A stretch of 64,000 bases of DNA from Candidatus Latescibacterota bacterium (GCA_965248355.1 OZ252098.1:1632001-1696000); one strand, 5' to 3'. Numbered from the stretch's first letter, positions 2,592-46,609 are shown. Made by a program: numbers and translations. Notes: generated by a model not told the origin, from the letters alone.

Positions 2592-2618
2592 CCGGCCCCC
2601 CGGCCTATCTTTGAGAAC

Positions 2619-4959: not shown

Positions 4960-4967
4960 GACGGGCG

Positions 4968-5687: not shown

Positions 5688-5856
5688 CGCCGACGCCCTG
5701 CGGAGCGGAGCAGCCGCACGTTTCGCAAGGGATGCAACCCCACCAGGTGTGGATGGCACCCCGCGCAACTCACCGGCTGCGGATTCCGCATCGCCCTGGG
5801 GGGCGCCTGACCCTGCCCAGCGGAGCCGCCGCGCCCAGGAGCCGAGGCGCCGCTCG

Positions 5857-6275
5857 GGACCGAGGGTCATCCAGTTCCCGGAGGACCGGTCCTTCGGCGA
5901 GATCGTCGTGCGCGACTGGGGGAGCCCGGTCCACGGCGGCTACCGCAGCGACTGGGAAGACCTCGGGTTCCGCATGGCACAACTCGGTCACGTGGACCGA
6001 CGACGACTGCCGTCACCTGTCACGCCTGCGGGGTCTCGTCTGGGTGAGCCTCGTAGGTGTCTCGATCAGGGACGAGGGGCTGCGCTGGCTCGGCGGATTG
6101 CGGGAACTCCGGCATCTCGACCTGCACAGGATCCCCGCGTTGACCGCCGAGGGCATCGCCCATCTCTCGGGACTGACGGAGATCGAGAGCTTCTTCTGCA
6201 CCTCGCGCCGAGGGGGTCACCGAGGAGGGTGTGAAGGCGCTGGAGGCGGCCCTGCCCAGGATGGGCGGATCGTAG
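5857..6275 (+). pseudogene. Frameshifted remnant of a leucine-rich-repeat protein
   Basis: Pieces in three frames: RVIQFPEDRSFGEIVVRDW; DDDCRHLSRLRGLVWVSL...IRDEGLRWLGGLRELRHLDL...TAEGIAHLSGL; VTEEGVKALEAALP* (typical LRR cap). Confidence 0.65.
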
Positions 6276-6303
6276 CGCTCCCCTCGGGACCGCTGGCCGC
6301 GCC

Positions 6304-6440
6304 TCAGCGGCCCTCCTTGCGCAGGATGTCGGCGGCGATGGCGCAGGTCGTGCCGTGCATGGCGATGACCACGACGCCGAGGCCCTCGGCGAGATAGCCG
6401 CCGGGGTAGAGGCCGGGGATCTCCACGGACTCACGGACCT
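6304..6440 (-). pseudogene. Orphan C-terminal gene fragment, possibly from an FAD-dependent oxidoreductase
   Basis: Reads ...EIPGLYPGGYLAEGLGVVVIAMHGTTCAIAADILRKEGR* with host-like codons and no start. Confidence 0.3.
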
Positions 6441-6512
6441 GCTGTACTCAAAGACTGGGCGACGGGTTCGAAACCTCCCACGTCTGTCTGGTCAGTGAAC
6501 CTGCATCCGGGT

Positions 6513-7394
6513 TCATCTGTCGCGGGGAGCCTGTTGCACGCCTCCCTTGATCTGACCCCAGAACGCCGGAGAGAATGACGTGGCTACCCGGGGCGTCATC
6601 CATGCATCCCCGAAAGAGTCAGCGCTCTCGCGAAGTCGCCCCGTAAGTCCGTTTGACGTGTGAACCCTCAGTACCTCGTATGGATCCACTTCCACAAAGA
6701 GAACGCTGAGCCCGATGACGGCGCCCTCGACGATCCTTGACGGAGAGCTTGACTCCAGACCGGCCGGATCGATGGAATCAAACACAGTCATATACAGTTC
6801 GAGCGTCGAGTGCACCTGATCGTCATCCTCTACAAAGGAACCCGGCCCGTCGATGAACTGCGGATCATCCAGCCACATCCGCTCGGGGCTCTCGTACTTG
6901 ATCTCCAACGCGCCTCCCCGGCCTTGAATGGCCGAACAGCGCTGTGCCCCACCGATCTCCATATGATCCTCCCCGGAATGATCGGCATCGACCATCAACT
7001 CCACCTGTCCGTCGAAATACCCATCCACGGGCTCATCCACATGCTTGTCGTCCCATCTCTCCACAGCCAGATACACACGACTTCTCTCGGGATCAACAGC
7101 GATCCAGATCTCGATATCGACTGAGCCCCCCCAGTCACCAGCATAGTGCCCTGCTGTCGGATCGATAAACAGATCAGTGTTTCGAAGTGTGGGCTCCCCC
7201 AGCACTTCCCGCCAATCCGTCAGTGACCCATCCGTCACATCGAGGACCGCGGCCTCCTGCGAGCGCAAGAGCGGTACACTCAAGAGGTATTCTCCAGTCA
7301 CGGGAATGTGGGAGAACGCTTCCTGCTGGGTAAACAACGCAGAGAAGACCAACGCTGTCCTTGCAGAGCAAAGTCGCCGCAATGTCTCCACCAT
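6513..7394 (-). CDS. Secreted CBM9/DOMON-like sugar-binding domain protein with a C-terminal WGQIK motif
   Basis: Signal-peptide-like N-terminus; DGSLTDW, RVYLAVERWDD, ELMVDADHSG, IGLSVLF; tail SFSPAFWGQIK; visibly lower GC than flanks. Confidence 0.65.
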   Translation of the reverse strand: MVETLRRLCSARTALVFSALFTQQEAFSHIPVTGEYLLSVPLLRSQEAAVLDVTDGSLTDWREVLGEPTLRNTDLFIDPTAGHYAGDWGGSVDIEIWIAVDPERSRVYLAVERWDDKHVDEPVDGYFDGQVELMVDADHSGEDHMEIGGAQRCSAIQGRGGALEIKYESPERMWLDDPQFIDGPGSFVEDDDQVHSTLELYMTVFDSIDPAGLESSSPSRIVEGAVIGLSVLFVEVDPYEVLRVHTSNGLTGRLRESADSFGDAWMTPRVATSFSPAFWGQIKGGVQQAPRDR

Positions 7395-7479
7395 CGGTGC
7401 CTCCGGAGCCCTGGCCTGGACTATGGAGCCTCATCTCACAAGCGATACCTTCTGAATCACTCGCTCGGTCCCGGCGATC

Positions 7480-7790
7480 AGTCGGAATCGAGTATGTGAG
7501 GCTCGTTGCGGGATTGAACGGATTCGGGTAGGCAACCCCCAGCTCAATGTGAGTTGGCAAGAACTCTTCAGAACCCGCGGAGGCGACGGGCTTTGGCCGC
7601 CGAGTCTCCACCCTCTTCTGAGGCAACACTCTTGCTGTCGCTCCCGCCGTCTCCATACAGCTCTTCCAGTGCATCTCGATCGTCTGTGTCAATGCTGCGC
7701 TGCCCCAGACTCTCAGCGTGGACATCGTGCCCTCTGTAGGACCCACAGTTACAGTTCCCGCAAGTATGCGCCTGCAGCATCGACGGGTCG
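7480..7790 (-). pseudogene. Remnant of a secreted protein (possible M10/matrixin-like peptidase end plus truncated FlgD-Ig/T9SS-like domain)
   Basis: RSIDTDDRDALEELYG in one frame, then after an extra A near 7593: AKPVA...LPTHIELGVAYPNPFNPATSLTYSIP, which breaks off. Confidence 0.55.
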
Positions 7791-7792
7791 AG

Positions 7793-8044
7793 CTACTGCC
7801 CGTTCTTGTCGGGGTGGCGCACGGCGCAGGCCAGGCAGGCCGCGGCCGCGGCGTCGAAGGCGTTGCCGCCCTCGCTGAAGATCCGCTCGCCGGCCTCGGC
7901 GACGAGCTCGGACTCGGCCGCCACGACACCGCGGGACCCGACCATGGAGTGGGGGGTCCTGGTGCGCGGCGGCTCCGGCTTGGCCGCGGAATCCCCCCGG
8001 TCACCTGGCGAGCCCTGGATCTGTTCCCGGCTCTCGTGCTCCAC
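7793..8044 (-). pseudogene. ggt: Truncated gamma-glutamyltransferase (N-terminal fragment only)
   Basis: GSRGVVAAESELVAEAGERIFSEGGNAFDAAAAACLACAVRHPDKNG followed by a premature stop; GGAGGAG RBS before the GTG at 8044. Confidence 0.75.
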
Positions 8045-8267
8045 CTTGGTCTCCTCCCTGTCCGCCCGCGCAGGTCCCGCGCAATGTCTCCGGGCTCCCG
8101 GCCGAACGACGATTCTCTGAAGAACAGGATCTGGCGCACTCCGGACCAGCCCAGGAGCGACGGACCGGGGACCCCCAAGGAAAGGCCCCGCAACATCGGG
8201 CGGCGGATGCGGGCCCTCCCCGCCGAGATCCGATCGCACGGGACCCGTTTCCTGCCGTTGCCCTTCG

Positions 8268-8432
8268 TGTCGCAAAATTGCGACAGGTGTCTCATATTGC
8301 TACACATGGCCCCTCGCTGCCTCTCTGGGTTTTATAACCCGTTTATAAACAGTGGGTTGAACAGTTTCCCCCCTTCAGGCCACCGCGGGGGCAGGCGCGG
8401 GGGCAGGCGCAGGAGTGTTTCAAAATGCGACA
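8268..8432. promoter_or_regulatory. Three TGT...ACA palindromes, putative upstream activator sites for a sigma-54 enhancer-binding protein
   Basis: TGTCGCAAAATTGCGACA (8268-8285), TGTCTCATATTGCTACA (8288-8304), TGTTTCAAAATGCGACA (8416-8432). Confidence 0.65.
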
Positions 8433-8512
8433 CTCGACCCCCTTCCCCCGGGGCTTTCTCCCAATGCTTCAACTCGTTTATCTGCAATCAGTTAGCTCCC
8501 TTTCTTCGAAGA

Positions 8513-8528
8513 TGGCACAGTCTTTGCG
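8513..8528 (+). promoter_or_regulatory. Sigma-54 (-24/-12) promoter
   Basis: TGGCACAGTCTTTGCG matches TGGCAC-N5-TTGC directly upstream of the giant CDS. Confidence 0.8.
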
Positions 8529-8570
8529 CAGCCGCTCGAAATGTCCGGCCTCCGGCTTCCTACACGAGCG

Positions 8571-11500
8571 ATGCGCTTCCCCTCTCGATGCCATCCGGGT
8601 GACGGCCGTCCCGCCGCCCTGGGGCTTCTGGTCGTGTCCTTCCTGTGTCTGTTTCCGGGGGCCCTGTCCGAGTCGCGGGTGGAGGGCCAGGGCGGGGCCG
8701 GCGATCAAGAGGCAGAGGATTCGGGCCCCTCGCGGCTGTACTGGACGGACGCCGGCAGCGACAAGATCCAGCGGGCTCTTCTGGACGGCTCCGAGGTGGA
8801 GGACGTGGTCGCCGGCCCCCGCCAACTGCGCGGCCTGACCCTGGACCTGGCCGGCGACCGGCTCTACTGGGCCGACCGCGGCGCCGGCAAGATCCAGCGG
8901 GCCGACCTCGACGGCGGCGGCGAACAGGACCTGGTCACCGGCCTGAGCCATCCCCGCAGCCTGGTGGTGGACGCCGAGGCCGGCCGGATGTACTGGACCG
9001 ACTCCGGCACCGACAAGATTCAGCGGTCCGACCTCGACGGCTCGGGAGTGGAGGATCTGGTCACCGACGGCCTGCAGACCCCCCTGGGCCTGGCCCTGGA
9101 CGCCGACGCCGGGTGGCTCTACTGGACCGATTGGGGCACCGACAAGATCCAGCGGGCCCGGCTCGACGGCAGCGGGGTGGAAGACCTGGTCACGGGCCTG
9201 CACACGCCCCGGGGCCTGGCCCTGGACCTGGGCGCCGGCCGGATGTACTGGACCGACTCCGGCACCGACAAGATCCAGCGCGCCCACCTCGACGGCTCCG
9301 ATATGGAGGATCTGGTCACCGGCCTGCGCCTGCCCCGGGCCCTGGCCCTGGACGCGGAGGCCGGCCAGATCTACTGGACCGACGCCGCCACCGGCCAGAT
9401 CCAGTGCGCCAACCTCGACGGCTCCGATGTGCGCGACCTGGTCACCGGCCTGCGCGATCCCCGGGGCCTGGCCCTGGCCCTCACGGGGACGCCCAACCGC
9501 CCCCCGGTCGTGGCGCCGATGGCGGACCGCACCCTGGCCGCCGGAGACACCCTGACGCTGCCGCTGACGGGTCACGACCCGGACGGCGACGACCTGACCT
9601 GGCAGGCCCGGTCCGCCGACGAGAAGGTGGCCGCCGCCGCGGTCCGGGCCGACTCCCTGCGCCTGGTGGCCCGGGCCCCCGGCCGGGCGGCGATCGAGGT
9701 CACCGCCCGCGATCCGGGCGGCCGTACGGGCACGGAGCGCTTCACCGTCACCGTACCGGCCAACCGGCCGCCGGAGGCCGTGGCCCGGCTCTACTGGACC
9801 GAGTCCGGCCGCGGCCGGATCCGCCACGCCCACCTCGACGGCTCGGGGGTGGAAGACCTGGTCACCGGCCTGTCGCAGCCCCGCGGCCTGGCCCTGGACG
9901 CGGCCGGGGGCCGGCTCTACTGGACCGACCCCCGCGCCGACAAGATCCAGCGAGCTTCCCTCGACGGCTCGCTGATCGAAGATCTGGTCACCACCGGCCT
10001 GGAGGCCCCCTCCGGCCTGGCCCTGGACCCGGCGGCCGGCCGGCTCTACTGGACCGACTACGGCACCGACCGGGTGCAGCGGGCCGGCCTCGACGGCAGC
10101 GGCGTGGAAGCTCTGGTCACCACCGGCCTGCGCCAGCCCCAGGGCCTGGCCCTGGGCGCCGGCCGGCTCTACTGGACCGACGCCGGCGCCGACCGGATCC
10201 AGGCCGCCGACCTCGACGGCGCCGGCGTGCGGAATCTGGTCACCACCGGGCTGCAGTCCCCCCAGGACATCGCCCTGGACACGCTCGGAGGCTACCTCTA
10301 CTGGGCCGACTTCGGCACCGACAAGATCCAGCGAGCCCCCCTCGACGGCTCGCCGGTGCAGGACCTGGTCACCGAGGGCCTGCGCGCCCCCCAGGGGATG
10401 GCCTTGGATGCGGCCGCCGGCCGGATCTACTGGACCGATACCGGCACCGGCAAGATCCAGCGCGCCCGTCTCGACGGCGTCGGCGTGGAGGATCTGATCG
10501 CCGAGGGCCTGGACACCCCCTACGACCTGGCCGTGGGCGCCGGCCTGCCGGCGCGGAGGGTGAGGGTGGGAGACGAGCCGGACACCCTGGCGCTGGCCGG
10601 GCGCTTCCGAGACCCGGAGGGCGGCCCCCTGAGCTACCATGCCGTCTCCGCGGACATGGCCGTGGCCGCCGCCGAGGTCGCCGGCGCCCGGATCACGATC
10701 ACCGCCGTGGCCGCCGGCCGGACGTCGATCGCCGTCACCGCGCGCGACCCCGAGGGTCTGCGGGCCACTCTCCCCCTCGCCGTGCAGGTGCTCCCCAGAC
10801 CCAACCGGCCCCCGACCCTGCTACCGCTGGCGGATCTCACCGCCACCGCCGGCGACACCCTGACCCTCGGGATCCAGGCCACCGACCCCGACGGGGACCG
10901 CCTCCGCTACACGGCCTCCGCGGCCGACTCCGCCATCGCCCGGGCCAGTGCCGTCGATTCGGTGATGACCCTCCGGCCGAAGGCGGCGGGCGAGACGACG
11001 ATCGCCGTCACGGTCCGCGACGACAGCCTGGAGGCGGCCGGAAGCTTCGGGCTGACCGTGGAGTGGCCCAACCGGGCGCCGGTGGCCGGCGACCTGCCGG
11101 ACCGCCAGGTGTTCCTGGGCGACGAGGCCCGGGTCCCGCTGGCCAAGGTCTTCTCCGACCCCGACGGCGACCGCCTCGGCTACACCGCCGCCTCGAAGAA
11201 TCCGGCGGTGGCCGCCGCCGAGGCCGCCCGGGACACCCTGACGATCACCCCCGTGGCCGAGGGCCAGGCGGCCATCGACGTCACCGCCACCGATCCCGAG
11301 GGCCTGCAGGCCGCCGGGACCTTCACCGTCACCGTGAAACCCAAGCCGCCGCCCGGCGGTGGTGGTGGGGGCGGTGGTTTCATCCCGCCTCCGCCTCCTC
11401 CGCCGCCACCGGCCAACAACCAGGCCCCGACCTTCGACGACGGGACGAGCACCGCCCGCACCGTGCTTGAAAGCGCCCCGGCCCGACAAGGCATCCAGCA

Positions 11501-14500
11501 CCCGGTCCGAGCCACCGACCCGGAAGGACACCCGCTCACCTACCGGCTCGCCGGACCCGACGCGGACCACTTCACCGTCGACCGCAGCCGAGGCCAGTTG
11601 CGCACCCGAACCGGCGTCGCCTACGACTACGAGACCACCGACCGCTACTCGGTCACCCTGCATGCCGAGGACCCCTACGGCGGTACCGACGCCATCAACG
11701 TGACCGTGCACGTGGCCGACGTCGACGAACCCCCCCAGGCCCCGGCCCGCCCCCGGGTCGAGCCCGCCTCCTCGACGAGCCTGACCGTGACCTGGGACGA
11801 GCCGGTCAACACCGGCCCCGACGTCAACGACTACGACCTGCAGTACCGCAAGAGCGGCTCCTTCCTTCCCTGGCCGCACACCGGCCCCGGCGCCACCACC
11901 ACGATCCCCGACCTGGACCTGAACACGCGTTACGAGGTGCAGGTCCGGGCCACCAACGACGAAGGCACGGGCGCTTGGTCCGCCTCGGGCTTCGGCTCGA
12001 CCGGCGCCAATCAGCGGCCGGTCTTCGAGGAATCCGCGCCCACGCGCAGCCTCGACGAGAACACCCCGCCCAATCGGAACATCGGCACCCCGGTAAGGGC
12101 GACCGATCCCGAGCTCAGCCCCATCACCTACCGCCTTGCTGGACGCGACGCCGACTCCTTCACCCTCGACGAGACCCGCGGCCAACTGCGCACCCGCCCC
12201 GGCGTCACCTACGACTTCGAGACCCGGAGCCGATACTCCGTGACCGTGGAGGCCACCGACGAGCCGGGCGGCCGTGCGACTATCACCGTGACGATTGAAC
12301 TGACCGACGACGACAACGAACGGCCGGATACACCCGACAAGCCGTCCGTCACGGCCTCCACGTTGAACAGCCTTTCCATTCGATGGACGGCCCCGGCCAA
12401 CACCGGCCCCGACGTCAACGACTACGACGTGCATTACAGTGAGGACGGCGGCGCCTTCACCGACTGGCCGCACGTGGGTCCCGGCACGACCACGACCATC
12501 ACCGGGTTGAAAGCCAACACGCCCTACGAGGTTCAGGTGCTGGCGCGCAGCGACGAAGGCGAGAGCCTCTGGTCCGAGTCCGTTGACGTGAGAACCATCG
12601 CCAACCGGGCCCCGACCTTCACCGAGGGTACGAGCACCACGCGCACTCTGGCCGAGAACACCACGGGCACAACCGATATCGGCAACCCGATAACCGCAAG
12701 CGACGGCGACGGAGGGACGCTGACCTACCATCTCGAAGGCACGGACCGGGCCTCCTTCTCTCTCGATGGCAACCAGCTTCAGACAATAGCGGGCGTCGCC
12801 TACGACTACGAGGAGAAGAGCAGCTACGTCGTGATCGTGCGCGTGCAAGACGGTCAGGGCGGCAGCAACACCATCGAGGTGGCGATCAACCTGATAGACC
12901 GACAGGAGCCACCCGAGACCCCGGCTGCACCCCGGGTCATACCGGCCTCATCAACGAGCCTGACAGTAACCTGGGACGAGCCGGCAAATACCGGACCCGA
13001 CATCGACGACTACGACATCCAGTACCGCGAAGGGGACAGCGGCGGCTTTACCTCCTGGACACACAACGGCCCGGAACTCACCGCAACCATCACCGGTCGT
13101 AGCCCGGGCACGAGCTATGAGGTGCAGGTGCTCGCGCGCAACGCCGAAGGCACGAGCGATTGGTCCCCGTCGGGCACGGGAAGCACCCACCCCAACCAGC
13201 CGCCGGTCTTCACCGACGGATCGAGCACCACGCGCAGCTTTGCCGAAAACACGACAGGCGTGCAGAACATCGGCGATCCGTTAAGCGCCACCGACCCGGA
13301 GGGCACCCCCCTGACCTACAGCCTGGAAGGCACAGACGCAGATGCCTTCACCATCAACTCGCGCAGCGGTCAACTTCGGACCAAATCGGATCAGACCTAC
13401 AACTACGAGGCTAAGCCCCGCTACGTTGTGAGTGTGAAAGCAACAGACGGGCATAGCGGTGAGCGCACCATCACCATTTTAATTAACCTGAACGACGTCA
13501 ACGAGCCGCCCTCGTTCACCAGCGACGCGACCTTCGAGACCGAGGAAAACAACCGGTCCATCGGCCGGGTGGATGCCGTGGACGTCGACAACGGCGATGG
13601 CATCACCGGCTACACCCTCACCGGCGGTGCTGACCAGGACCAGTTCGAGATCAATAGCGCAGGGGCGTTGACCTTCAAGGAGGCCCCTGACTTTGAGGAT
13701 CCCGCAGACAGTGGCAGAAACAACGAATACATCGTGGAGGTCACAGCGACTGGCGGCACGGAAACCCAGGAACAGACGACAACACAGACGATAACCGTCA
13801 CCGTGGAAAACGCAGATGAACCGCCGGGCAAGCCCGATCTGCCCACGGTGAGCAACGAGACGGAGAATAGTCTGACCGTGAGTTGGGACGAGCCGAGCAA
13901 TACCGGTCCGCCCATCACCGATTACAATGTGCAATACCGCGAAGGCAGCAGCGGCGCCTTCACTGCGGCGGCACACGATGGCACGGGCAGGACGACGACG
14001 ATTGCGAACCTGGAGTCGGACACCTCTTATGAGATTCAGGTGCAGGCCACCAGTGACGAAGGCACGAGCCAGTGGTCGCCATCGGGGAATGGACGGACCG
14101 GCGCCAACCAGGCCCCCACCTTCACCGAAGGTTCGAGCACCACCCGCAGGTTGGTCGAGAACACGACCGGCGCCCACAACATCGGCAACCCGATAACCGC
14201 AAGCGACGGCGACGGAGGGACGCTGACCTACCATCTCGAAGGCACGGACCGGGCCTCCTTCTCTCTCGATGGCAACCAGCTTCAGACCCAATCGGGCGAG
14301 ACCTACGACTACGAGGAGAAGAGCAGCTACGTCGTGATCGTGCGCGTGCAAGACGGTCAGGGCGGCAGCAACACCATCGAGGTGGCGATCAACCTGATAG
14401 ACCGACAGGAGCCACCCGAGACCCCGTCAGCACCCCGGGTCATACCGGCCTCATCAACGAGCCTGACAGTAACCTGGGACGAGCCGACAAATACCGGACC

Positions 14501-16898
14501 CGACATCGACGACTACGACATCCAGTACCGCGAAGGGGACAGCGGCGGCTTTACCTCCTGGACACACAACGGCCCGGAACTCACCGCAACCATCACCGGT
14601 CGTAGCCCGGGCACGAGCTATGAGGTGCAGGTGCGAGCGCGCAACGACGAAGGCGCGAGCCTCTGGTCCCCGTCGGGCAGGAGCTGTTCAGAAGGCGGCG
14701 ACGCCCCGACGCCGGTGGAAGTGGAAGTGACGGCGGTGCCCATCGTGGTCGCGTCCACGACGGATGAGTACTTCGTGCTCTATGTACGGCACGATCTGGA
14801 TGGCACAGAGGTCGAGATCCCTGTGCTGGTGAAGAAGGGTGAAGCGGGTACGACAACGCTTGCTGAGAACGTGGCGGCACTGCCCAAGGAGCGCTACCGG
14901 GTCGAGAAGTACCTCCTCGCTGACCCAGCCGACGTTGACGGCGATTGCATCGACGACATCACCGAACTCGATGACCTGGGCAGCCTGAACCCGGTGAACG
15001 CCGCCGGCAGCGTCGACCTCAACGACGGCGCCGTGGCCCTTCCCGACAGGGCAACGTTTGAGACCCTCTCCTATGGCTTCGGAGCCAGGACGTACCTGAA
15101 GTTCGTTCTTCTAGGCTTCAACACCGAAAACCCGCGGGTCTACTTTCTGAACGCCACCACGCACCCCGGACACCCTGGCTTCACAAATACCCTCTATGCG
15201 CTGGGCATCGAGGAGGACGGCGCCGACTACGTATACAATGGTTTGATCACTTATCACCGCGATATCCGTTCCGACAATGGGGGTCTCGGAGTTTACACAT
15301 TCTGGATTTACGGCATCAAACCCTTCAGCCACGTGGACCTCATTCATACGTTGCTCGCCGCCAGCATGCCGGTGCTTGAGCAAGACCTTGCCTATAACTT
15401 GAGCAACTATGAGATTTTGGCTATCCAAGACGACTTGCCGCTCTACGAGGCGTCCCGAATCAACGTCATGTTCGACAGAGACCTCGCTCCCGAGAGTGAT
15501 TTCATCCCGTTGAACCAGGCGATAGGGTACGGCCTGCTGCGGCACATGGACACGGACGACCGTCCCAACCCCCGCGACGTGGTGATCTACGAGGCGCTGC
15601 CCAACAATCTGCCCCGCGTCGCCGGCATCATCACCACCATGCCCCAAACGCCGCTCTCGCACGTCAACCTGCGCGCTGTCCAGGACGGCGCGCCAAACGC
15701 CTTTGTCCGCGGCGCCCTCGACGACCCCCAAATCAGTGCGCTCATCGGGAAGCACGTCCGCTACACGGTCAGTGAAGACGGATACACCATCCGGGCGGTC
15801 ACCAAAGAGGAAATCGACAACCACTATGCGTCGTCCCGCCCCGCCCAGCCGCAGACGCCGGAACGCGACCTCTCGGTCACTGAGATCACCCCCCTCAGCG
15901 ACATCGGCTTCGATGACTGGGACGCCTTCGGCGTCAAGGCGACCAACGTGGCCGTGCTAGGAACTCTCGGGTTCCCGGAGGGGACGGTGCCCGACGGCTT
16001 CGCGATCCCGTTCTATTTCTACGACGAGTTCATGAAGCACAACGACTTCTACACCCGCATTGAAACCATGCTGGCGGATGAAGATTTCCAGACGGACTTC
16101 CAAGCCCAGGCGGACTCACTCAAGAAACTGCGCAAGGCCATCGAGGACGCGGAGACGCCGGATTGGATCGTCTCGGCAATCGAGACCATGAATGAATCTT
16201 TCTCCGCGGGGATCAACCGTCGCTACCGGTCCAGCACCAACAACGAGGACCTGCCGGGTTTCAACGGCGCGGGCCTGTACGACTCCAAGAGCCAGAAGCC
16301 CAGCGAGGACGAGAGGGACTTGGCCAAGTCCCTCAAAGAGGTGTATGCCAGCCTGTGGAACTTCCGCGCCTTTATCGAACGTGACTTCCATCGTGTCGAC
16401 CACCTGTCTGCCGCCATGGGGGTCCTGGTGCACCCCAGCTACCGGGACGAACTGGTCAACGGCGTCGCCGTCAGCTTCGACCCCGTCTCCGGCAGGGAGG
16501 GGCGCTACTACGTTAACAGCCAGGTGGGCGAGGACCTGGTAACCAACCCAGATGCGCACTCCATCCCAGAGGAACTCCTGCTACGCCGCATACGCCTCTC
16601 GAATAGTGTGTCTGTCGAAGTCCTTGCTACTTCCAACCAGGTTAGCCCAGGTGAATTGCTCATGAGCGGCACTCAAATTCATCAGTTGGGCCAGCACTTG
16701 ATCGTGATCCATGAGGAGTTTAAGGAGCTGTACGACCCAGGGCCCGATGAGCCGTTCGCCATGGAGATCGAGTTCAAGATCACCAGCGACAATATCCTGG
16801 CGATCAAGCAGGGCATTGTCCCGATCTTAGTTGAAATAGCACAGGCTCCCATCGTTACGTTTGATACGAGAAATCCCCAAGAAGCCTCGTATCGGTAA
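8571..16898 (+). CDS. Giant secreted multidomain protein: two six-bladed YWTD propellers, Ig-like/cadherin and FN3 repeats, C-terminal phosphohistidine + PEP/pyruvate-binding (ATP-grasp) dikinase module; native C-terminus replaced by IS sequence after 16811
   Basis: Hydrophobic signal segment; 12 YWT(D/E)/YWAD repeats; ATDP(D/E)G and YDYE cadherin motifs; FN3 LTVTW...YEVQVRA; AGIIT..QTPLSHVNLRA; FGVKATN, VPDGFAIP, RSSTNNED..FNGAGLYDS, MEIEF, IKQ. The ORF begins at 8541; ATG 8571 is preferred given the promoter position. Confidence 0.9.
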   Translation: MRFPSRCHPGDGRPAALGLLVVSFLCLFPGALSESRVEGQGGAGDQEAEDSGPSRLYWTDAGSDKIQRALLDGSEVEDVVAGPRQLRGLTLDLAGDRLYWADRGAGKIQRADLDGGGEQDLVTGLSHPRSLVVDAEAGRMYWTDSGTDKIQRSDLDGSGVEDLVTDGLQTPLGLALDADAGWLYWTDWGTDKIQRARLDGSGVEDLVTGLHTPRGLALDLGAGRMYWTDSGTDKIQRAHLDGSDMEDLVTGLRLPRALALDAEAGQIYWTDAATGQIQCANLDGSDVRDLVTGLRDPRGLALALTGTPNRPPVVAPMADRTLAAGDTLTLPLTGHDPDGDDLTWQARSADEKVAAAAVRADSLRLVARAPGRAAIEVTARDPGGRTGTERFTVTVPANRPPEAVARLYWTESGRGRIRHAHLDGSGVEDLVTGLSQPRGLALDAAGGRLYWTDPRADKIQRASLDGSLIEDLVTTGLEAPSGLALDPAAGRLYWTDYGTDRVQRAGLDGSGVEALVTTGLRQPQGLALGAGRLYWTDAGADRIQAADLDGAGVRNLVTTGLQSPQDIALDTLGGYLYWADFGTDKIQRAPLDGSPVQDLVTEGLRAPQGMALDAAAGRIYWTDTGTGKIQRARLDGVGVEDLIAEGLDTPYDLAVGAGLPARRVRVGDEPDTLALAGRFRDPEGGPLSYHAVSADMAVAAAEVAGARITITAVAAGRTSIAVTARDPEGLRATLPLAVQVLPRPNRPPTLLPLADLTATAGDTLTLGIQATDPDGDRLRYTASAADSAIARASAVDSVMTLRPKAAGETTIAVTVRDDSLEAAGSFGLTVEWPNRAPVAGDLPDRQVFLGDEARVPLAKVFSDPDGDRLGYTAASKNPAVAAAEAARDTLTITPVAEGQAAIDVTATDPEGLQAAGTFTVTVKPKPPPGGGGGGGGFIPPPPPPPPPANNQAPTFDDGTSTARTVLESAPARQGIQHPVRATDPEGHPLTYRLAGPDADHFTVDRSRGQLRTRTGVAYDYETTDRYSVTLHAEDPYGGTDAINVTVHVADVDEPPQAPARPRVEPASSTSLTVTWDEPVNTGPDVNDYDLQYRKSGSFLPWPHTGPGATTTIPDLDLNTRYEVQVRATNDEGTGAWSASGFGSTGANQRPVFEESAPTRSLDENTPPNRNIGTPVRATDPELSPITYRLAGRDADSFTLDETRGQLRTRPGVTYDFETRSRYSVTVEATDEPGGRATITVTIELTDDDNERPDTPDKPSVTASTLNSLSIRWTAPANTGPDVNDYDVHYSEDGGAFTDWPHVGPGTTTTITGLKANTPYEVQVLARSDEGESLWSESVDVRTIANRAPTFTEGTSTTRTLAENTTGTTDIGNPITASDGDGGTLTYHLEGTDRASFSLDGNQLQTIAGVAYDYEEKSSYVVIVRVQDGQGGSNTIEVAINLIDRQEPPETPAAPRVIPASSTSLTVTWDEPANTGPDIDDYDIQYREGDSGGFTSWTHNGPELTATITGRSPGTSYEVQVLARNAEGTSDWSPSGTGSTHPNQPPVFTDGSSTTRSFAENTTGVQNIGDPLSATDPEGTPLTYSLEGTDADAFTINSRSGQLRTKSDQTYNYEAKPRYVVSVKATDGHSGERTITILINLNDVNEPPSFTSDATFETEENNRSIGRVDAVDVDNGDGITGYTLTGGADQDQFEINSAGALTFKEAPDFEDPADSGRNNEYIVEVTATGGTETQEQTTTQTITVTVENADEPPGKPDLPTVSNETENSLTVSWDEPSNTGPPITDYNVQYREGSSGAFTAAAHDGTGRTTTIANLESDTSYEIQVQATSDEGTSQWSPSGNGRTGANQAPTFTEGSSTTRRLVENTTGAHNIGNPITASDGDGGTLTYHLEGTDRASFSLDGNQLQTQSGETYDYEEKSSYVVIVRVQDGQGGSNTIEVAINLIDRQEPPETPSAPRVIPASSTSLTVTWDEPTNTGPDIDDYDIQYREGDSGGFTSWTHNGPELTATITGRSPGTSYEVQVRARNDEGASLWSPSGRSCSEGGDAPTPVEVEVTAVPIVVASTTDEYFVLYVRHDLDGTEVEIPVLVKKGEAGTTTLAENVAALPKERYRVEKYLLADPADVDGDCIDDITELDDLGSLNPVNAAGSVDLNDGAVALPDRATFETLSYGFGARTYLKFVLLGFNTENPRVYFLNATTHPGHPGFTNTLYALGIEEDGADYVYNGLITYHRDIRSDNGGLGVYTFWIYGIKPFSHVDLIHTLLAASMPVLEQDLAYNLSNYEILAIQDDLPLYEASRINVMFDRDLAPESDFIPLNQAIGYGLLRHMDTDDRPNPRDVVIYEALPNNLPRVAGIITTMPQTPLSHVNLRAVQDGAPNAFVRGALDDPQISALIGKHVRYTVSEDGYTIRAVTKEEIDNHYASSRPAQPQTPERDLSVTEITPLSDIGFDDWDAFGVKATNVAVLGTLGFPEGTVPDGFAIPFYFYDEFMKHNDFYTRIETMLADEDFQTDFQAQADSLKKLRKAIEDAETPDWIVSAIETMNESFSAGINRRYRSSTNNEDLPGFNGAGLYDSKSQKPSEDERDLAKSLKEVYASLWNFRAFIERDFHRVDHLSAAMGVLVHPSYRDELVNGVAVSFDPVSGREGRYYVNSQVGEDLVTNPDAHSIPEELLLRRIRLSNSVSVEVLATSNQVSPGELLMSGTQIHQLGQHLIVIHEEFKELYDPGPDEPFAMEIEFKITSDNILAIKQGIVPILVEIAQAPIVTFDTRNPQEASYR
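12678..14650 (+). repeat. Near-identical internal duplication (~470 bp cadherin+FN3 unit; copies ~12678-13150 and ~14181-14650, offset 1503 nt)
   Basis: ATCGGCAACCCGATAACCGCAAGCGACGGC...GAGCTATGAGGTGCAGGTGC occurs twice with few mismatches, including at synonymous sites. Confidence 0.9.
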
Positions 16899-18235
16899 CC
16901 CAAGGAGCCTGCCATGAGCAGGCTACAAGCACGGAAGAAGGGCGTCAAACGGACCGTGGCCATCGGCCCCGTGAACCGCCAAGCCACCGCGTCGATGGAC
17001 GATCTGGAGACTCGCATCGAGGTCATCCAGCTGCTGATCCCTTTGGGTCTGCAGGCGGTCTCGGAGGAGCTGCAGCAGTCGGTCGAGGCCTTGGCCGGAC
17101 CTCGGTATCAGCGCAAGGGTCCGGATCAGGCGTTGCGCCGCTGGGGGGCGCAGGCCGGGTCGGTGTACCTGGGCGATCAGAAACTGCCGGTCGAGGTGCC
17201 GCGCGTGCGCGATGTGGTCCGCGGCACCGAGGTCCCGCTGGAGGCCTATCAGGCCCTGCAGACGCCGAGGCAGATGGACCAGGGGCTGTTGTTGCGGGTG
17301 CTGAAGGGCCTGGCCACGCGCAACTACGAGGCCTGCGCCGAGACCGTCCCGCAAGCCTTCGGTCTGTCCCGTTCCTCGGTCTCTCGCCGGTACGTGAAAG
17401 GCACGGCGCGCAAGCTGGCCGAATTCCAGCAGCGATCCCTGGAAGGCTACGACCTGGTGGCGCTGTTTCTGGACGGCAAGAGCTTCGCCGACGAGGAGAT
17501 CCTCATCGCCCTGGGTGTGACTCTGGAGGGCCAGAAGGTGCCCTTGGGCTTCGTGCAGGCGGCCACCGAGAACGAGCGCGTCTGTCGCCGCTTCCTGGCG
17601 GAGCTGGTCGAGCGGGGCCTGCAATACGAAGCCGGGCTGCTCGTGGTGATCGATGGAGGCAAGGGCCTGTACAAGGCGGTGCGGTCGGTGCTTCAAGGCC
17701 ATGCCTGCGTGCAGCGATGCCAGTATCACAAGCGCCAGAACGTGGTCTCGTACCTGCCCAAGAGCGAGCAGGCCGGCCTTCGTCGAAAGCTGGAAGCGGC
17801 GTATGGGCACTCGACGTACGAGGAGGCCCAAGCCGCCCTGGAGGCGCTGAAACCGGGGTTGCAGTTGATGAACCAGTCGGCCCTGCGCAGCTTGGAGGAA
17901 GGCCAGCAAGAAACCCTCACGCTCCACCGCCTGGGCCTGATGCCGATGCTGAAGGCCTCCTTCCGTACCACCAACTGTATCGAGAACGTCAACAGTCTCC
18001 TGGAGCAGTTGACGCACAACGTGCGGCGCTGGACCAACTCGTCGCAGCGTGACCGCTGGGTCGCCACGGCGTTGCTTGACATCGAACCTCGCCTCCGCCG
18101 GGTCAACGGCTACCACCACCTGCCGATGCTCCGGCAAGCGCTCCAAGCCGAACTCGGCATCCAGCAGCTCGCGATGACGGGCTGACTCATCCACTCGAGC
18201 CTGGGCTACGTTTCAACTGAGAATGGGACTTGCCC
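16812..18235 (+). mobile_element. IS256-family insertion sequence with imperfect terminal inverted repeats
   Basis: Left end GGCATTGTCCCGATCTTAGTTGAAATAGCACAGGCTC versus reverse complement of right end GGGCAAGTCCCATTCTCAGTTGAAACGTAGCCCAGGCTC; encloses a transposase. Confidence 0.92.
16914..18185 (+). CDS. IS256 (Mutator-type) DDE transposase
   Basis: VPRVR, GLATR, S.SSVSR, LFLDG, ALGVTLEG.K, LVERGL, VIDGGKGL, QRCQYHK, RTTNCIE; AAGGAG RBS. Confidence 0.95.
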   Translation: MSRLQARKKGVKRTVAIGPVNRQATASMDDLETRIEVIQLLIPLGLQAVSEELQQSVEALAGPRYQRKGPDQALRRWGAQAGSVYLGDQKLPVEVPRVRDVVRGTEVPLEAYQALQTPRQMDQGLLLRVLKGLATRNYEACAETVPQAFGLSRSSVSRRYVKGTARKLAEFQQRSLEGYDLVALFLDGKSFADEEILIALGVTLEGQKVPLGFVQAATENERVCRRFLAELVERGLQYEAGLLVVIDGGKGLYKAVRSVLQGHACVQRCQYHKRQNVVSYLPKSEQAGLRRKLEAAYGHSTYEEAQAALEALKPGLQLMNQSALRSLEEGQQETLTLHRLGLMPMLKASFRTTNCIENVNSLLEQLTHNVRRWTNSSQRDRWVATALLDIEPRLRRVNGYHHLPMLRQALQAELGIQQLAMTG

Positions 18236-20854
18236 CGTGGGTCACGTCGTATCAATACCGGTGGCGGCTGACGATGCCGCCCGACTGGTCGAGCTGGGCA
18301 AGCGCCGGGGCCGGCTTGAGCCACACGGTGGAGGACCTGACCAACGGCCGCACCCACACCTTCGAAGTGCGGGCGGTCAATGCCGTCGGCAAGGGGCCGG
18401 CCTCCAACCAGGCCTCGGCGACGCCCCAGGCGTGCGAGTTGTCGCTGTCGGGGCCTACATCGGTGGACTACGCCGAGAACGGCACCGGCTCGGTGGGCAC
18501 CTACACGGTGACCCGCTCCAGCGCCTGCGACCCGGCCGCGACGCTGTCGTGGTCGCGGGTCGGCACCAATCCTCTGGACTTTCGATTGCAGGGCTCCGGG
18601 TCGTCGAGATCGCTGCATTTCAAGACCTCCCCCAACCACGAGGAGAAGGACTCCTACGAGGTGACGGTGCAGGTCAGCGCCGGGTCCGAGTCGGCGAGCC
18701 GGCCGGTGACGGTGACCGTTGAAGACGTCAACGAGCCGGGCACCGTCACCATCTCCTCGGACAGCCCCTATGTGGGCGACCGGGTCTGGGCCACGCTCAC
18801 CGACCCGGACGGCGTCGAGGGGCCGACGTGGTCGTGGACCTCCGTGGGCACGGGCTCGCGCTCGCCTCCGACGGAGTCGGACTCGTATTACCACACGGTG
18901 CCGGCGTCCGCCTTTGGCCGGATTCTCCAGGCGACGGTGGGCTACACCGACGCCCACGGCCCCCAGAGCGCGGTGGGCACCGCGGGCCCGGTGCAGAGGC
19001 GGCCCTGCAGCCTGTCGCTGTCGTCGGGGCCGACGTCGGTGACCTACGCCGAGAACGGCACCGGCTCGGTGGGCACCTACACGGCCACGAATTGCGACGG
19101 GCTCACGTGGTCGCTGTCGGGCACCGACGACGGCGCCTTCGAGTTGACCGGCTCCGGGTCGTCGCGCACGCTCGCCTTCGACGACCCGCCCAACTACGAG
19201 GTCAAGAGTTCGTATGCGGTGATCGTGGAGGTCGCCTCCGGGTCCGAGTCGGACAGCCGGACGGTGACGGTGAACGTTGAAGATGTCAACGAGCCGCCGG
19301 TGATCTCGGGCCCGGCCAGCAAGTCGGTGCCCGAGAACACCACCCCGGTGGCCACCTACACGGCCACCGATCCGGAAGGCCACTCGGTCACCTGGAGGAT
19401 GGCGACCGGGGGCGGCACCTTCAGCATCGGTGGAAGCAGCGGCGTCCTGGCTTTCAAGAGCGCCAAGGACTACGAGGCCCTGAGCAGCTACACCTTCACC
19501 GGCACGATCCGGGCCACCGACAGCGGCTCCCCGGAGGCGTCCTCGACCCAGGCCGTGACCGCGACGGTGACCAACGTCGACGAGCCGGGCACGGTGACCC
19601 TGTCCTCCGGCAGCCCCTATGTGGGCGACCAGCTCACGGCCACCCTCACCGACCCGGACAAAGGCATCCGGCAGCCGACCTGGTCCTGGACCTCCGAAGG
19701 GGCCGGTGCCCGCTCTCCTTTCGGTGCAGTCGTTGCGCTACACCGTGCCCGTGGGCGATTTCGGCCGGATCCTGAAGGCGTCGGTCGGTTACACCGACAA
19801 TCATGGCCCCGGCAAGAGGGCCTCGCGCACGGCCTCGGTGCCGGTCCGGGCGCACCGGCCGGACCCGCCGCCCGACTTCGACGCCGCCCGGGGCGACGGA
19901 CAGGTGGTCCTGACCTGGGGCCAGGCCGACGGCAACGGAGCCCCGATCACTGGGTATGGATACCGCTATCGCTCGGACACCGGCTCCTGGCCGTCCGGCT
20001 TTACGTCGATCTCCGGCCGTAGCAAGACGATCAGCCTGACCAACGGCACGCTCTATCACTTCCAGGTCCAGGCCCGCAACATCGGCGGCGCCAGCTCGTC
20101 GTCCGAGGACTCGGCCACGCCCGCCGGCACCCCGGGGGCGCCGCAGAGCCTGGCCACCGACCGGCAGGGCGGGAATGGGTTCATGGAGCTGACCTGGGAG
20201 GCGGCCGCGGCCAACGGCTCGCCCATCCTGGCCTACTACTACCGCTACAAGAAGACCGGGGACGAGGACTGGCGCGGCTGGTATCGCCGCACCGGCGGGG
20301 CCAACGCGCGCAGCAAGAGCTGGACCAACTTCGACGACGGCTCCGCGTACGTCTTCCACGTGCGGGCCCGCAACGGGGTCGGCTACGGCTCCACCGCCCA
20401 GATCTCGGCGTCGGCCCTGGGTCCCGGCGCCAGCCGCGGGGACCGGGGTGAGCACGAAGAGACCGAGGACGAGCTGATGCCCGAGGGCGAGGTCCCCGAA
20501 CCCGGCGAGGACGACGTGGTGGTCTTCGCCAAGCCGGTGGCCGAAGGGCCGGAGGCCAGCTGGCTGGCAGGAGCCGACTCGCTGGCGGTGCGCCCCGGGC
20601 CGAACCCGTTCAACCCGGAAACCACCTTGCGCTTCCAGTTGCCGGAAGCCGCGCCGGTGACCCTGACCATCCACAACACCGCCGGCCAGCGGGTAGTCGA
20701 GTTGGTCCGCGGCGAGATCCTGACCGCCGGGCTCCACGAACGCGCCTGGTCCGGCACCGACGAAGCCGGCCGACCGGTCGCTTCGGGGCTGTATCTCTAC
20801 CGCCTCGTCGCCGGAGACCAGGTCCGCGTCGGCAAGCTCGCCCTCATCCGGTAG
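18236..20854 (+). pseudogene. 5'-truncated, frameshifted FN3/cadherin surface-protein gene with C-terminal FlgD-Ig/T9SS-like domain
   Basis: Starts mid-FN3 (VTSYQYRW) at the IS end; cadherin motifs YAENGT, PNYE.K; frame change near 19718 links ORF 18223-20022 to ORF 19619-20854; ends PNPFNP...VASGLYLYRL...KLALIR*. Confidence 0.8.
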
Positions 20855-21826: not shown

Positions 21827-24051
21827 CCGGGCTCTCCCCGTGATTCGTCGAGAATCGCGCCCAGGCGGCCGAAGAGGAGGGCCTCCGGCGCCGCGCGGGT
21901 GCGCTGTCCGGCCGGGATGGTGCGGCTGAAGCTGACCGCCAGGAAGCGCCGGGCCCGGGTGATGGCCACGTAGAGCAGCCGCAGCCGCTCGCAGATGTAC
22001 TCCAGCTGGCCGGCGCCCGCCACGGAGGGGCGCGGCTCGGCGCCCAGGAGGCCCTCGAGGCGGGCCCTCGCCATGTAGGCCGGATCCCCTCCGAGGTGGG
22101 GCTGGTGCCCGCGGAAGAAGTCCTCCGGGGCCCCCGGGAACTCGATGCCGTCGACCCCCACGAGATAGACGAGGTCCCACTCCATGCCCTTGGACTTGTG
22201 CATCGTCGTCAGGGTCAGCTGCCCGGGCTGCGGCTCGTACGCGGCCTCGTCCCCGGCGCCCAGGATCTCCCGGGCCGCCTCCGGCCGCTGCAGGTCGGCG
22301 GCCAGCTCCGGCAGCCGCCAGCCGGGGTTCTGGTCCGTCCGCCGGCGCAGGTATCCGGCGACGCGCTGGGCCCGGGCCAGATCGTCGCCTTCGAAGAGCT
22401 CGGCGGCCACGGCCAGGGCGAGCTGGTCCACGGGGAAGCGCCCCGCCTCCAGCCAGCGGCGGGCCCGCCGCGCCAGGACGCCGAGGGGCTGCAGGTCCCC
22501 GTGCCGCCGGGCCACCGGCGGGAAGGCGTCGGCCACCGAGACTCCCGGGGCCGGATAGAGCAGGCTCTCGGGGCGGTAGCAGCTGCGCACCAGGGGCCGC
22601 AGCTCCTCGGTCTCCGGGCCCTCTCCGGCGGTGGCCCGGAAGACGCCTTCGAGGGCGGCCGGGAGGAGGGGGTTGGCGACGAAGGTCAGGACCCGGGCGA
22701 GCCGGTCGATCACCTCCCGGGAGCGGCGCGTGGTGGTCAGGCGCTCGTCGAAGGAGACCCCCTCCTGGCGCAGGACCTCGGCCATCTCGAAGCCGAGTCG
22801 GTTGGTGGGCACGAGCACGGCGAGGGTGCACTCGGGCCGGGCCCGGGTGAAGCCGAGGGCCCGCCGGGCGGCGTAGGCCAGCTCCTCGGCCCGGTGGTCG
22901 AAGGCGCGCAGGGCGACGGCGCTGTCCCCGTCCTCCGGATTCGGCTGCGGATCCCCGGCCCCGGCCGGATCCATCCGTTGGCGGCGGAAGGCCTCCTGCC
23001 GGACCTCGGGGACCGGGTAGGCCTCGCACGTCCAGGCCACCAGGCCGTTGGCCAGGCCCATGATCCCCGGGGCGCAGCGGCCGGAGACGGACATCTCCAC
23101 GGTGCCCACGTCCCCGCGCTCGAGAAAGCGGCGCAGGAACCGGGGATCGGCGGAGGTGAAGGTGCTGGTGATCGACTGGTTGGGGTCGCCGACCCGGATC
23201 CAGTGGCCGGAGCCGGAGGTCAGCCGCCCCAGGAGCTCCTCCTGGAGGGGGACGCTGTCCTGGGCCTCGTCCTCGAGCACCACGGGCCAGCGCGCCCCGA
23301 GCCGTTGGGCCACGTCCTCGTGGGAGGCGAGCAGGTCCACGGCCAGGCGCACCATGTCGTTGAAGTCGATGCCGCCGCCGTTCTCGACCAGCAGCTGGTA
23401 GCGCCCGTAGAGCTCGGCGCCGATGGCCAGGAGCCGCAGGGGCAGGTCCCCGTTCTCCCCGCGACCGGCGGCGGCGGACAGCAGAGCCAGCAGCCCCCCT
23501 GCATCGAGGCGGCGATTCTTGGCGCCGGCGATCACCGTGCGGGCGATCTCGGCGCCGATGCGGCCCCATCTCTCCTCCCAGGCCGTGTCGTGCTCTCCGG
23601 GGGCCAGCGGTTCCCAGCGGTGCCGGTTCCCGGCGCTCCACTCGCCGAGGGCGCGGTCGATCAGTTCCTGCTGGGAGCGCTCGTCCAGGACCCTGAAGTC
23701 GGAGTCCGTGCCCGCGTGCCCGGGCCAGGTCTGGACGATGCCGAAGGCCAGGCTGTGGAGGGTGCGCACCTCGTACCCCGCCGGGGGCAGCCGGCGGCCG
23801 GCCAGGGCCCGGGCGATGCGCCCCCGCAGGGCATCGGCGGCGGCGGCCTGGTAGGTGACCACCAGGACCCGGCCGGCGGCGGTCAGGGGGCCCAGACCCC
23901 GGCTGCGGCGGTGCAGCAGCTCGGCGGCGAGGTGGGCGATGGTCGTCGTCTTGCCGCTGCCGGGGACCGCCGCCACCCCCAGCAGACCCCCCTCGTACTC
24001 GAGGATCCGGCGCTGGCCGGGCCGGGGCCGGAAGTCCTCGGCGCCGTTCAC
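21823..24051 (-). CDS. UvrD/REP-family (SF1A) ATP-dependent DNA helicase
   Basis: AVPGSGKTT, RTLHSLA, LEDEAQD, VGDPNQSI, TMHKSKGMEWD, ERLRLLYVAITRAR; GTG start overlaps the upstream stop. Confidence 0.93.
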   Translation of the reverse strand: MNGAEDFRPRPGQRRILEYEGGLLGVAAVPGSGKTTTIAHLAAELLHRRSRGLGPLTAAGRVLVVTYQAAAADALRGRIARALAGRRLPPAGYEVRTLHSLAFGIVQTWPGHAGTDSDFRVLDERSQQELIDRALGEWSAGNRHRWEPLAPGEHDTAWEERWGRIGAEIARTVIAGAKNRRLDAGGLLALLSAAAGRGENGDLPLRLLAIGAELYGRYQLLVENGGGIDFNDMVRLAVDLLASHEDVAQRLGARWPVVLEDEAQDSVPLQEELLGRLTSGSGHWIRVGDPNQSITSTFTSADPRFLRRFLERGDVGTVEMSVSGRCAPGIMGLANGLVAWTCEAYPVPEVRQEAFRRQRMDPAGAGDPQPNPEDGDSAVALRAFDHRAEELAYAARRALGFTRARPECTLAVLVPTNRLGFEMAEVLRQEGVSFDERLTTTRRSREVIDRLARVLTFVANPLLPAALEGVFRATAGEGPETEELRPLVRSCYRPESLLYPAPGVSVADAFPPVARRHGDLQPLGVLARRARRWLEAGRFPVDQLALAVAAELFEGDDLARAQRVAGYLRRRTDQNPGWRLPELAADLQRPEAAREILGAGDEAAYEPQPGQLTLTTMHKSKGMEWDLVYLVGVDGIEFPGAPEDFFRGHQPHLGGDPAYMARARLEGLLGAEPRPSVAGAGQLEYICERLRLLYVAITRARRFLAVSFSRTIPAGQRTRAAPEALLFGRLGAILDESRGEPG

Positions 24052-28039: not shown

Positions 28040-28043
28040 GCCG

Positions 28044-30533: not shown

Positions 30534-30581
30534 GGCGCATCGTTCTCTTCGAAGGCTCGCCGCGTCGGGTGGGGGTCCTCC

Positions 30582-30646
30582 AACCTATCCCGCGCGGCCG
30601 GGAAGGTCAATCGGGATTTGCCGTAACCCTAAGCCGGGCCTACATT
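30582..30646. promoter_or_regulatory. Back-to-back divergent sigma-70-type promoters
   Basis: Minus strand TTGACC-17-TAGGTT (30610 to 30582); plus strand TTGCCG-17-TACATT (30618-30646). Confidence 0.6.
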
Positions 30647-30693
30647 TGGCGCCTTTCTGCTGCACCCTTGCAGGCGGGCCCGGCCTCTGACAC

Positions 30694-35994: not shown

Positions 35995-36078
35995 GTTGCC
36001 ACGAAAGGGCCGGCCGCTATATTTCGGAGCCCCTGCCCAGGCATCGACCCCGCCAAGCGGATACCGCACGAATACCCC

Positions 36079-46581: not shown

Positions 46582-46609
46582 CGGGAGGCGGCCAGAGCCG
46601 GACGGGCTC

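Follow-up and report, generated by a model that had tools for sequence, protein, structure and literature searches.

What would a dikinase do in an exported protein? The histidine-swivel dikinases that have been characterised, that is, phosphoenolpyruvate (PEP) synthase (PEPS), pyruvate phosphate dikinase (PPDK), rifampin phosphotransferase (RPH), the glucan, water and phosphoglucan, water dikinases (GWD/PWD) and the phenolic dikinases, are to our knowledge all intracellular or plastidial. In Candidatus Latescibacterota bacterium (GCA_965248355.1), a stretch of 64,000 nucleotides (OZ252098.1:1632001-1696000, here called the window, which was analysed at its full length) contains a giant open reading frame (ORF) for an adhesin-like protein, and near the end of this protein lies a conserved 710 residue module with the motifs of such an enzyme. 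An earlier reading of the DNA (the sequence-only reading) had proposed that the module is an exported dikinase with its domains in the order found in GWD. Our comparison of sequences and predicted structures supports this interpretation, with corrections, and we consider it probable that the histidine-swivel dikinase superfamily has in this module an extracytoplasmic member of GWD-type domain order, which would pass phosphate to an acceptor at the cell surface or in the periplasm.

The product of the giant ORF contains 11 YWTD (Ldl_recept_b) repeats, Big_9, 4 cadherin domains, 5 fn3 domains and a single PPDK_N domain by Pfam. The last of these, an ATP-grasp domain, was confirmed by a hidden Markov model scan at residues 2464-2747 of the giant protein (E 1.3e-23; 84 bits; cut-off 27). 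All of the ATP-grasp motifs and the histidine codon named in the sequence-only reading were found in the frame of the ORF and their coordinates were re-verified (Table 1); the stretch assigned to them, 14683..16811, starts one nucleotide late, the in-frame start being 14682. As a set, the motifs are far beyond chance. Residue conservation was counted over 391 domain instances, each denominator being the number of instances that cover the column. K419 is kept in 355/356, R516 and E522 in 354/354, D523 in 353/354, E695 in 343/347 (with Asp in 4 more), E697 in 345/347 and Q710 in 344/344. When conservation is taken by 20-residue windows, values are highest in the His motif, at 0.88-0.92, and in the ATP-grasp core, and lowest (0.39-0.68) in module residues 121-280.

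An AlphaFold2 (AF2) model of the module, made from an alignment of 30 sequences, had a pLDDT of 86.8 and a pTM of 0.81. The ATP-grasp domain takes up module residues 410-708 in it. Foldseek returned 22 matches to the whole model at E<=1e-3, all of them nucleotide-binding domains with about 320-420 alignment columns each. The best was the ATP domain of RPH (5hv6_A; E 1e-13; TM-score 0.73 on the target), followed by HpeI (9goj; E 2.4e-13), PEPS (2ols; E 3.7e-13) and PPDKs from E 4e-6. Sequence and profile searches of the PDB likewise matched the ATP-grasp part alone, to the nucleotide domains of PEPS, RPH and PPDK (e.g. 9dae, E 6.9e-16).

Upstream of the ATP-grasp domain, the SHVN segment that the sequence-only reading had likened to a swivelling phosphohistidine motif was modelled confidently as a small domain (7 strands, 3 helices) whose helix 327-335 starts with His327. 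This residue is His in 354/356 family instances. The layout equals that of the StGWD1 His domain, which the published description gives as 3 helices and 7 strands with the His on a short helix (PMC13553574). Among 29 family His segments, five matched PF22973 (GWD1_pHisD) co-linearly and below threshold (E 0.058-0.25; 11-13 bits; cut-off 27), none matched PF00391 (PEP-utilizers mobile domain), which was also not found in the window sequence, and the first 423 module residues of the window copy matched no Pfam family at E<=10. The superfamily is marked by an ATP-grasp domain with conserved nucleotide and Mg ligands together with an invariant His on a small domain, and by alignment and model the module has both.

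The module begins with a beta-sandwich, an acidic loop and an alpha/beta domain. D84, D86, D88 and D92 of the loop are kept in 334-335 of 335 instances, and the DxDxDxxxD pattern may be Ca-binding by its resemblance to the thrombospondin-type-3 motif. The alpha/beta domain, modelled alone from 58 sequences, reached a pLDDT of 87.5, and no solved analogue was found by Foldseek among PDB entries at E<=1e-3. APOBEC2, the best match (E 0.013; TM-score 0.19-0.25), was rejected as chance. We regard the domain as a candidate acceptor- or ligand-binding domain.

This upstream part also occurs by itself. At one locus (L046) the module gene is preceded by two paralogous ORFs, 2542-5946 and 6052-9870, each encoding a signal peptide and a counterpart of module residues 1-270 at 37% identity. 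Calx-beta and PKD domains follow in both, and neither encodes a His domain or an ATP-grasp domain. Among the 120 matches listed in a search with this head region, 16 had Pfam sets of the PKD/Calx-beta type and no PF01326, 2 matched no Pfam domain, and all others were kinase-bearing. Because the head is found without the kinase part, the unit of about 270 residues formed by the beta-sandwich, the loop and the alpha/beta domain is autonomous. The kinase may use it as a ligand-binding head that serves as acceptor site, or it may be just a neighbouring module; in the full modules examined, the kinase part is always accompanied by it.

By sequence similarity, the module belongs to a family that is very large and has no name. 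A word-indexed search gave 2254 matches among 7999 scored candidates, and the best 120 of the 2254 were 63-96% identical over 94-100% of the 710 residues. An exhaustive search of 1.84 billion representatives gave 4414 matches at E<=1e-3, which fell to 2522 with the threshold at E<=1e-10 and to 1212 with E<=1e-30, and the family comprises at least 1212 clusters at 50% identity. The sequence-only reading had described the module as a feature of the protein's end, which does not hold for the family: in the best 150 matches it is N-terminal, in the middle or C-terminal, in proteins of 538-3769 residues, and two proteins (P0122 and P0123) have two copies each. In the ESM Atlas, a search with module residues 1-400 gave no usable match. 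The feature clusters nearest to one short relative (P0013) were hypothetical proteins of Verrucomicrobiota and Bacteroidota with PPDK_N as their only domain; one nearby set bears a type IX secretion system (T9SS) Por_Secre_tail and a Planctomycetota set bears EF-hands. A wider superfamily of secreted PPDK_N proteins may exist beyond the phyla seen here.

A scan of species-representative genomes matched at least 607 stretches, at least 580 of which encode relatives. The taxon counts, the loci and the tree given here refer to the best 80 of these stretches, with 79 loci examined, and all 80 are metagenome-assembled genomes (MAGs). Module rows in the tree came from Chloroflexota/Dehalococcoidia (54), Actinomycetota/Acidimicrobiia (13), Acidobacteriota (11), Latescibacterota (3) and Thermodesulfobacteriota (3). 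Multiple copies occur in many genomes, and some of them lie in tandem (L006, L009, L025, L069, L070 and L077). In a FastTree phylogeny of 85 modules the phyla are interleaved, with 19 changes of phylum label against a minimum of 4 and a shuffled mean of 28.6, and the window module pairs with a Dehalococcoidia copy as its sister (support 97). The modules of a Terriglobia MAG (L023) and of a Thermodesulfobacteriota chromosome (the second copy of L025) are near-identical sisters on branches of 0.075 and 0.048 (support 99), which is either a very recent transfer across phyla or a binning problem. The pattern of the tree fits transfer of the module between phyla, and binning errors could contribute to it. 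The carrier phyla other than Actinomycetota are typical of sponge microbiomes. Two Acidimicrobiia families in the records, Poriferisodalaceae and Aldehydirespiratoraceae, include sponge-symbiont lineages, and symbiotic Actinobacteriota show an enrichment of cadherin, LRR, fn3 and Calx-beta domains (PMC11706023). A sponge context is suggested by these taxon names and by the same source.

Export was judged by the presence of a 12-residue window with a mean Kyte-Doolittle hydropathy >=2.0 in the first 110 residues, or upstream of the module where this starts earlier, with ORF starts set at the first possible start codon. The 79 loci contain 88 module ORFs, 4 of which were left out as 5'-open or partial. 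A hydrophobic, signal-peptide-like N-terminus was found in 73 of the remaining 84, against 163/542 neighbouring ORFs of >=300 residues, in agreement with the exported homologs that the sequence-only reading expected. The survey of architectures is consistent with this. Short relatives (P0003, P0013 and P0015) consist of a signal peptide and the module, and in another (P0106) these are followed by C-terminal SLH repeats. In 20 long relatives, the partner domains are all of extracytoplasmic types, with fn3 in 15/20, and also IG_AIR9, cadherin, cadherin-like, Calx-beta, LRR and SWM repeats. In one protein of 3278 residues (P0159) the module is fused with two sulfatase domains (E 1.5e-98) and SGSH_C, and in another of 3210 residues (P0166) with GSDH, a PQQ-type glucose/sorbosone dehydrogenase (E 4.9e-66), and LRR; these fusions may hint at the substrate. 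Neighbouring genes encode repeat proteins in 51 of the loci and two-component systems, which are lineage-restricted, in 13.

The copy in the window is cut by an insertion sequence (IS) of the IS256/Mutator family. Its terminal inverted repeats (16818-16836 and 18211-18229) are imperfect, 19 nt at 84%; no target-site duplication was seen at the IS, no further copies of it were found in the window or in the 79 loci examined, and a distant blastn search against plasmids gave no match. Intact relatives stop about 12 residues past the position of the junction (...AIKQARPWVF and a few residues more), and P0002, which is 96% identical in the module, terminates ...AIKQARPWVFGAQVDP. The IS has cost the window copy about 12 C-terminal residues, including the nearly invariant ARPW, and has added 28 read-through codons. 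Since relatives end so soon after the junction, no domain has been lost and the lack of a PEP/pyruvate TIM barrel is genuine; the sequence-only reading had noted no such barrel before the IS, and a Pfam scan of the giant protein finds none. Beyond the IS are ORFs with cadherin, fn3 and FlgD_ig domains. The right flank (..PWVTSYQYRW..) resembles the lost ARPWVF, but a gene continuing past the IS was rejected because what stands here is the central part of an fn3 domain that lacks its first ~25 residues. As the genes on both flanks are truncated, the junction is a rearrangement and not a simple insertion, and it looks like an IS-mediated rearrangement or deletion.

Composition also changes within the giant ORF. 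GC content falls sharply from 0.74 to 0.62 near 12200, and GC at third codon positions (GC3) is 0.91-0.92 in 8541-12200, 0.76-0.82 in 12201-16811, 0.86 in the transposase ORF, and 0.93 and 0.89 in the two ORFs after the IS. P0002 aligns at 92% across 1002 residues, which are residues 1757-2758 of the giant protein. We infer that recombination brought a foreign segment of cadherin/fn3 domains and module, bordered by the IS, into a native adhesin gene, whose original 3' part is probably the first ORF after the IS. The module-bearing part of this mosaic gene looks recently acquired. In the cadherin/fn3 stalk there are two 300-nt direct repeats, 91% identical (12594-12893 and 14097-14396), which look like a recent internal duplication of a cadherin and fn3 unit. 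Truncated by the IS and without ARPW, the window copy is probably impaired, and the family that it reveals is large and intact.

The phosphotransfer cycle that we infer for the family, with the part played in it by the alpha/beta domain and the acceptor, would run as follows. ATP-Mg would be bound by the C-terminal ATP-grasp domain, and the beta-phosphate would be taken up by His327 on the mobile small domain, leaving AMP and inorganic phosphate (Pi). A swivel of the His domain would then carry the phosphate to an acceptor bound to the upstream alpha/beta domain, to the adhesin domains around the module, or to both. Since the module is an integral part of surface proteins that are Sec-exported and rich in repeats, the site of the reaction would be the carrier's cell surface or its periplasm. 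As acceptor we would guess first at a polymeric hydroxyl, for example of a host or matrix glycan, because of the sulfatase fusion and the adhesin context, and second at a small phenolic or antibiotic-like molecule. A more specific picture, which we offer tentatively and hold to be rather doubtful, is that of a surface-displayed dikinase exchanged among phyla, including sponge symbionts, which phosphorylates host or matrix glycans or strips extracellular ATP. If this were true, a system of extracellular phosphorylation that has so far gone unrecognised would be at work in animal-microbe symbiosis, and its acceptor-binding fold would be new.

Several points weigh against an exported dikinase. 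The chief objection is that ATP is scarce outside cells; in the 79 loci no gene for an ATP-supplying partner is conserved nearby, and none for an acceptor-making enzyme. The export call is a hydropathy heuristic with a background rate of 30% and first-possible starts. The His domain lies under the Pfam thresholds, the relatives being sub-threshold and the window's own segment without a match. The unit of about 270 residues, occurring as it does without a kinase, may serve more generally for binding or anchoring and not as an acceptor site. The window copy, lacking ARPW, may be inactive, and at four loci (L008, L024, L028 and L045) the module ORF has one in-frame stop each, these being either pseudogenes or assembly errors.

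Some of the same observations would suit an enzyme with no specific acceptor, which turned extracellular ATP into AMP and 2 Pi by transfer to water and which could serve in phosphate scavenging or in the removal of ATP as a danger or purinergic signal of the host. The ATP-grasp and His residues are strictly conserved, and conservation within the module is lowest in the putative acceptor domain; the upstream unit exists without the kinase, and the protein stands in an exported context. Simpler secreted nucleotidases and phosphatases would suffice for such a task, however, and a three-step swivel enzyme of 700 residues kept at 45-77% identity across phyla suggests specific transfer; in the full modules examined, the kinase part is constantly paired with the upstream unit. 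We think an ecto-ATP consumer of this kind unlikely.

The scarcity of ATP would be no problem for a module that was delivered as an effector or toxin into an ATP-rich host or competitor cell, there to phosphorylate an intracellular target (for instance glycogen, metabolite or protein). The module moves horizontally, and its carriers are adhesin-like proteins with eukaryotic-like domains, a type enriched in sponge symbionts (PMC11706023). Delivery is nevertheless hard to reconcile with the architecture, as no translocation, autoprocessing or secretion-system domain was found in the 20 long relatives or in the window protein, the position of the module is variable, unlike that of polymorphic toxins, and no small immunity-like gene is conserved next to it in the 79 loci. 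A delivered effector is, in our judgement, quite unlikely.

The structural matches raise the case of a kinase that inactivates small phenolic or antibiotic molecules, in the manner of RPH or of HpeHI/AcvAB, and that acts on natural products of hosts or competitors outside the cytoplasm. The closest solved ATP domains are those of RPH and HpeI, both of which phosphorylate hydroxyls of small molecules. This likeness does not discriminate, since the ATP domain of StGWD1 is also reported to be nearer to RPH than to PPDK (PMC13553574). The upstream domain, moreover, is unlike the rifampin-binding domain of RPH or any solved fold (0 matches at E<=1e-3), and the problem of ATP supply is unchanged, so that we hold this reading to be very unlikely. 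That the module is a non-catalytic remnant, an assembly chimera or a binding pseudo-enzyme is highly improbable, for although the window copy is IS-truncated and compositionally foreign and four relatives have in-frame stops, the fusion recurs in hundreds of independent contigs, complete chromosomes among them, and all catalytic residues are strongly conserved.

Table 1. Features of the giant ORF, its module and the adjoining genes, in window coordinates
Feature	Coordinates	Strand	Source
Giant ORF, 2785 aa	8541..16898	+	Pfam scan and translation
Signal-peptide-like N-terminus: basic stretch, then AALGLLVVSFLCLFPGALS	8541..8669	+	Judged by eye from translation
Conserved 710-aa module, module aa 1-710 (giant-protein residues 2048-2757)	14682..16811	+	
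Beta-sandwich, module aa 12-78	14715..14915	+	DSSP of AF2 model
DVDGDCIDD acidic loop, module aa 84-92	14931..14957	+	Translation, conservation
Alpha/beta domain, module aa ~120-268	15039..15485	+	AF2 model
Phosphohistidine (swivel-type) domain, module aa 274-385	15501..15836	+	AF2 model, conservation
His motif stretch RVAGIITTMPQTPLSHVNLRAVQDGAPNA	15615-15701	+	
Putative catalytic His codon CAC, module His327 (giant-protein His2374)	15660-15662	+	
ATP-grasp (PPDK_N), module aa 410-710, cut after ...AIKQ	15909..16811	+	
GVKATN motif	15930-15947	+	
VPDGFAIP motif	15987-16010	+	
RSSTNNEDLPGFNGAGLYDS motif	16227-16286	+	
VYASLW motif	16341-16358	+	
MGVLV motif	16416-16430	+	
EIEF motif	16764-16775	+	
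IKQ motif	16803-16811	+	
IS read-through codons, last 28 of giant ORF	16812-16895	+	
IS256/Mutator-family insertion sequence	16812..18234	+	Inverted repeats and transposase match
IS transposase ORF, Mutator/IS256 family	16914-18185	+	
5'-truncated fn3 and cadherin ORF, GC3 0.93	18235..20022	+	Native codon composition
ORF with fn3 and FlgD_ig-like C-terminal domain, GC3 0.89	19619..20854	+	

Elsewhere in the window there are other exported-looking genes, including one for a subtilase of 1421 residues with FG-GAP repeats (42418-46683, minus strand). A second cadherin/fn3-like stretch, 28% identical to the giant protein, lies near the end of the window (61148-62344, minus strand), and an SGL/NHL beta-propeller protein is encoded at 35995-36897 (plus strand). 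Three large ORFs at 24048-30584 (minus strand), of which two are membrane-protein-like (a TMEM260-like O-mannosyltransferase and a YfhO-like protein) and the third has no Pfam match, adjoin a sugar epimerase/dehydratase gene (30691-31821). Together these genes are a possible protein- or glycan-glycosylation cluster.

The family matters for its exported, adhesin-like carriers, its full set of kept catalytic residues and its spread over five phyla. If it is active, it would imply either that extracellular ATP is used in a regulated way or that there is a phosphoryl donor of a new kind, and also the covalent phosphorylation of something outside the bacterial cytoplasm. It also provides a confidently modelled domain without a solved analogue, and easily expressed forms of about 750-870 residues that consist of a signal peptide and the module. 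Literature searches on dikinase/PPDK_N, secretion and sponge terms found no published description of the family. Neither 'dikinase' nor 'PF01326' occurs in the main text of a study of sponge-symbiont Actinobacteriota (PMC11706023), and PPDK_N is listed among the intracellular domains of giant proteins in another report (10.1101/2023.11.21.568195). Public annotation leaves the family unnamed, and the only NCBI name seen among its kinase-bearing relatives, that of P0350, is 'cadherin-like beta sandwich domain-containing protein'.

Compared with known systems, the module shares with PEPS and PPDK a homologous ATP-grasp domain and its Lys, RSS..ED, E.E and Q motifs. It differs from them in its permuted domain order and in having neither PF00391 nor a PEP/pyruvate TIM barrel, and the NCBIfam equivalog for PEPS scores 72 bits against a cut-off of 598. 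RPH (Listeria 5HV1/5HV6) is likewise a histidine-swivel dikinase without the PEP TIM barrel, whereas its order is ATP-grasp, rifampin-binding domain and His, its NCBIfam model (RIF_Ptrans_rph) gives 49 bits where the cut-off is 999, its structural match is confined to about 330 columns of the ATP-grasp domain, and the enzyme is cytoplasmic. HpeHI, AcvAB and phenylphosphate synthase use water-dikinase chemistry on acceptors other than pyruvate, and HpeI is the second-best match to the ATP domain. In these two-subunit phenolic dikinases the ATP and the His/acceptor functions lie on separate cytoplasmic subunits, whereas the module has all of them on one exported chain.

The likeness to GWD and PWD of plants and algae is probably in the chemistry and certainly in the order of parts, with the acceptor-side domain or domains first, then His and then a C-terminal PPDK_N. 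The order given in the sequence-only reading stands (His327 is upstream of PPDK_N at module residues 417-701), and the module is not a member of the GWD family. The CBM45 and CBM20 domains are absent by Pfam from the 2785 residue protein and from the 20 long relatives, and the domain before the His domain is a mixed alpha/beta domain of about 150 residues, in contrast to the all-alpha central domain of GWD, which has 444 residues (PDB 9HA9; PMC13553574). The module is moreover bacterial, predicted to be Sec-exported and set within adhesin-like proteins, for which starch is no obvious substrate. PF22973 of GWD1 is the sole Pfam family touched, below threshold, by the His segments of the relatives. 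What the two have in common, besides the order, is that the ATP domain of StGWD1, like that of the module, is reported to be nearer to RPH than to PPDK.

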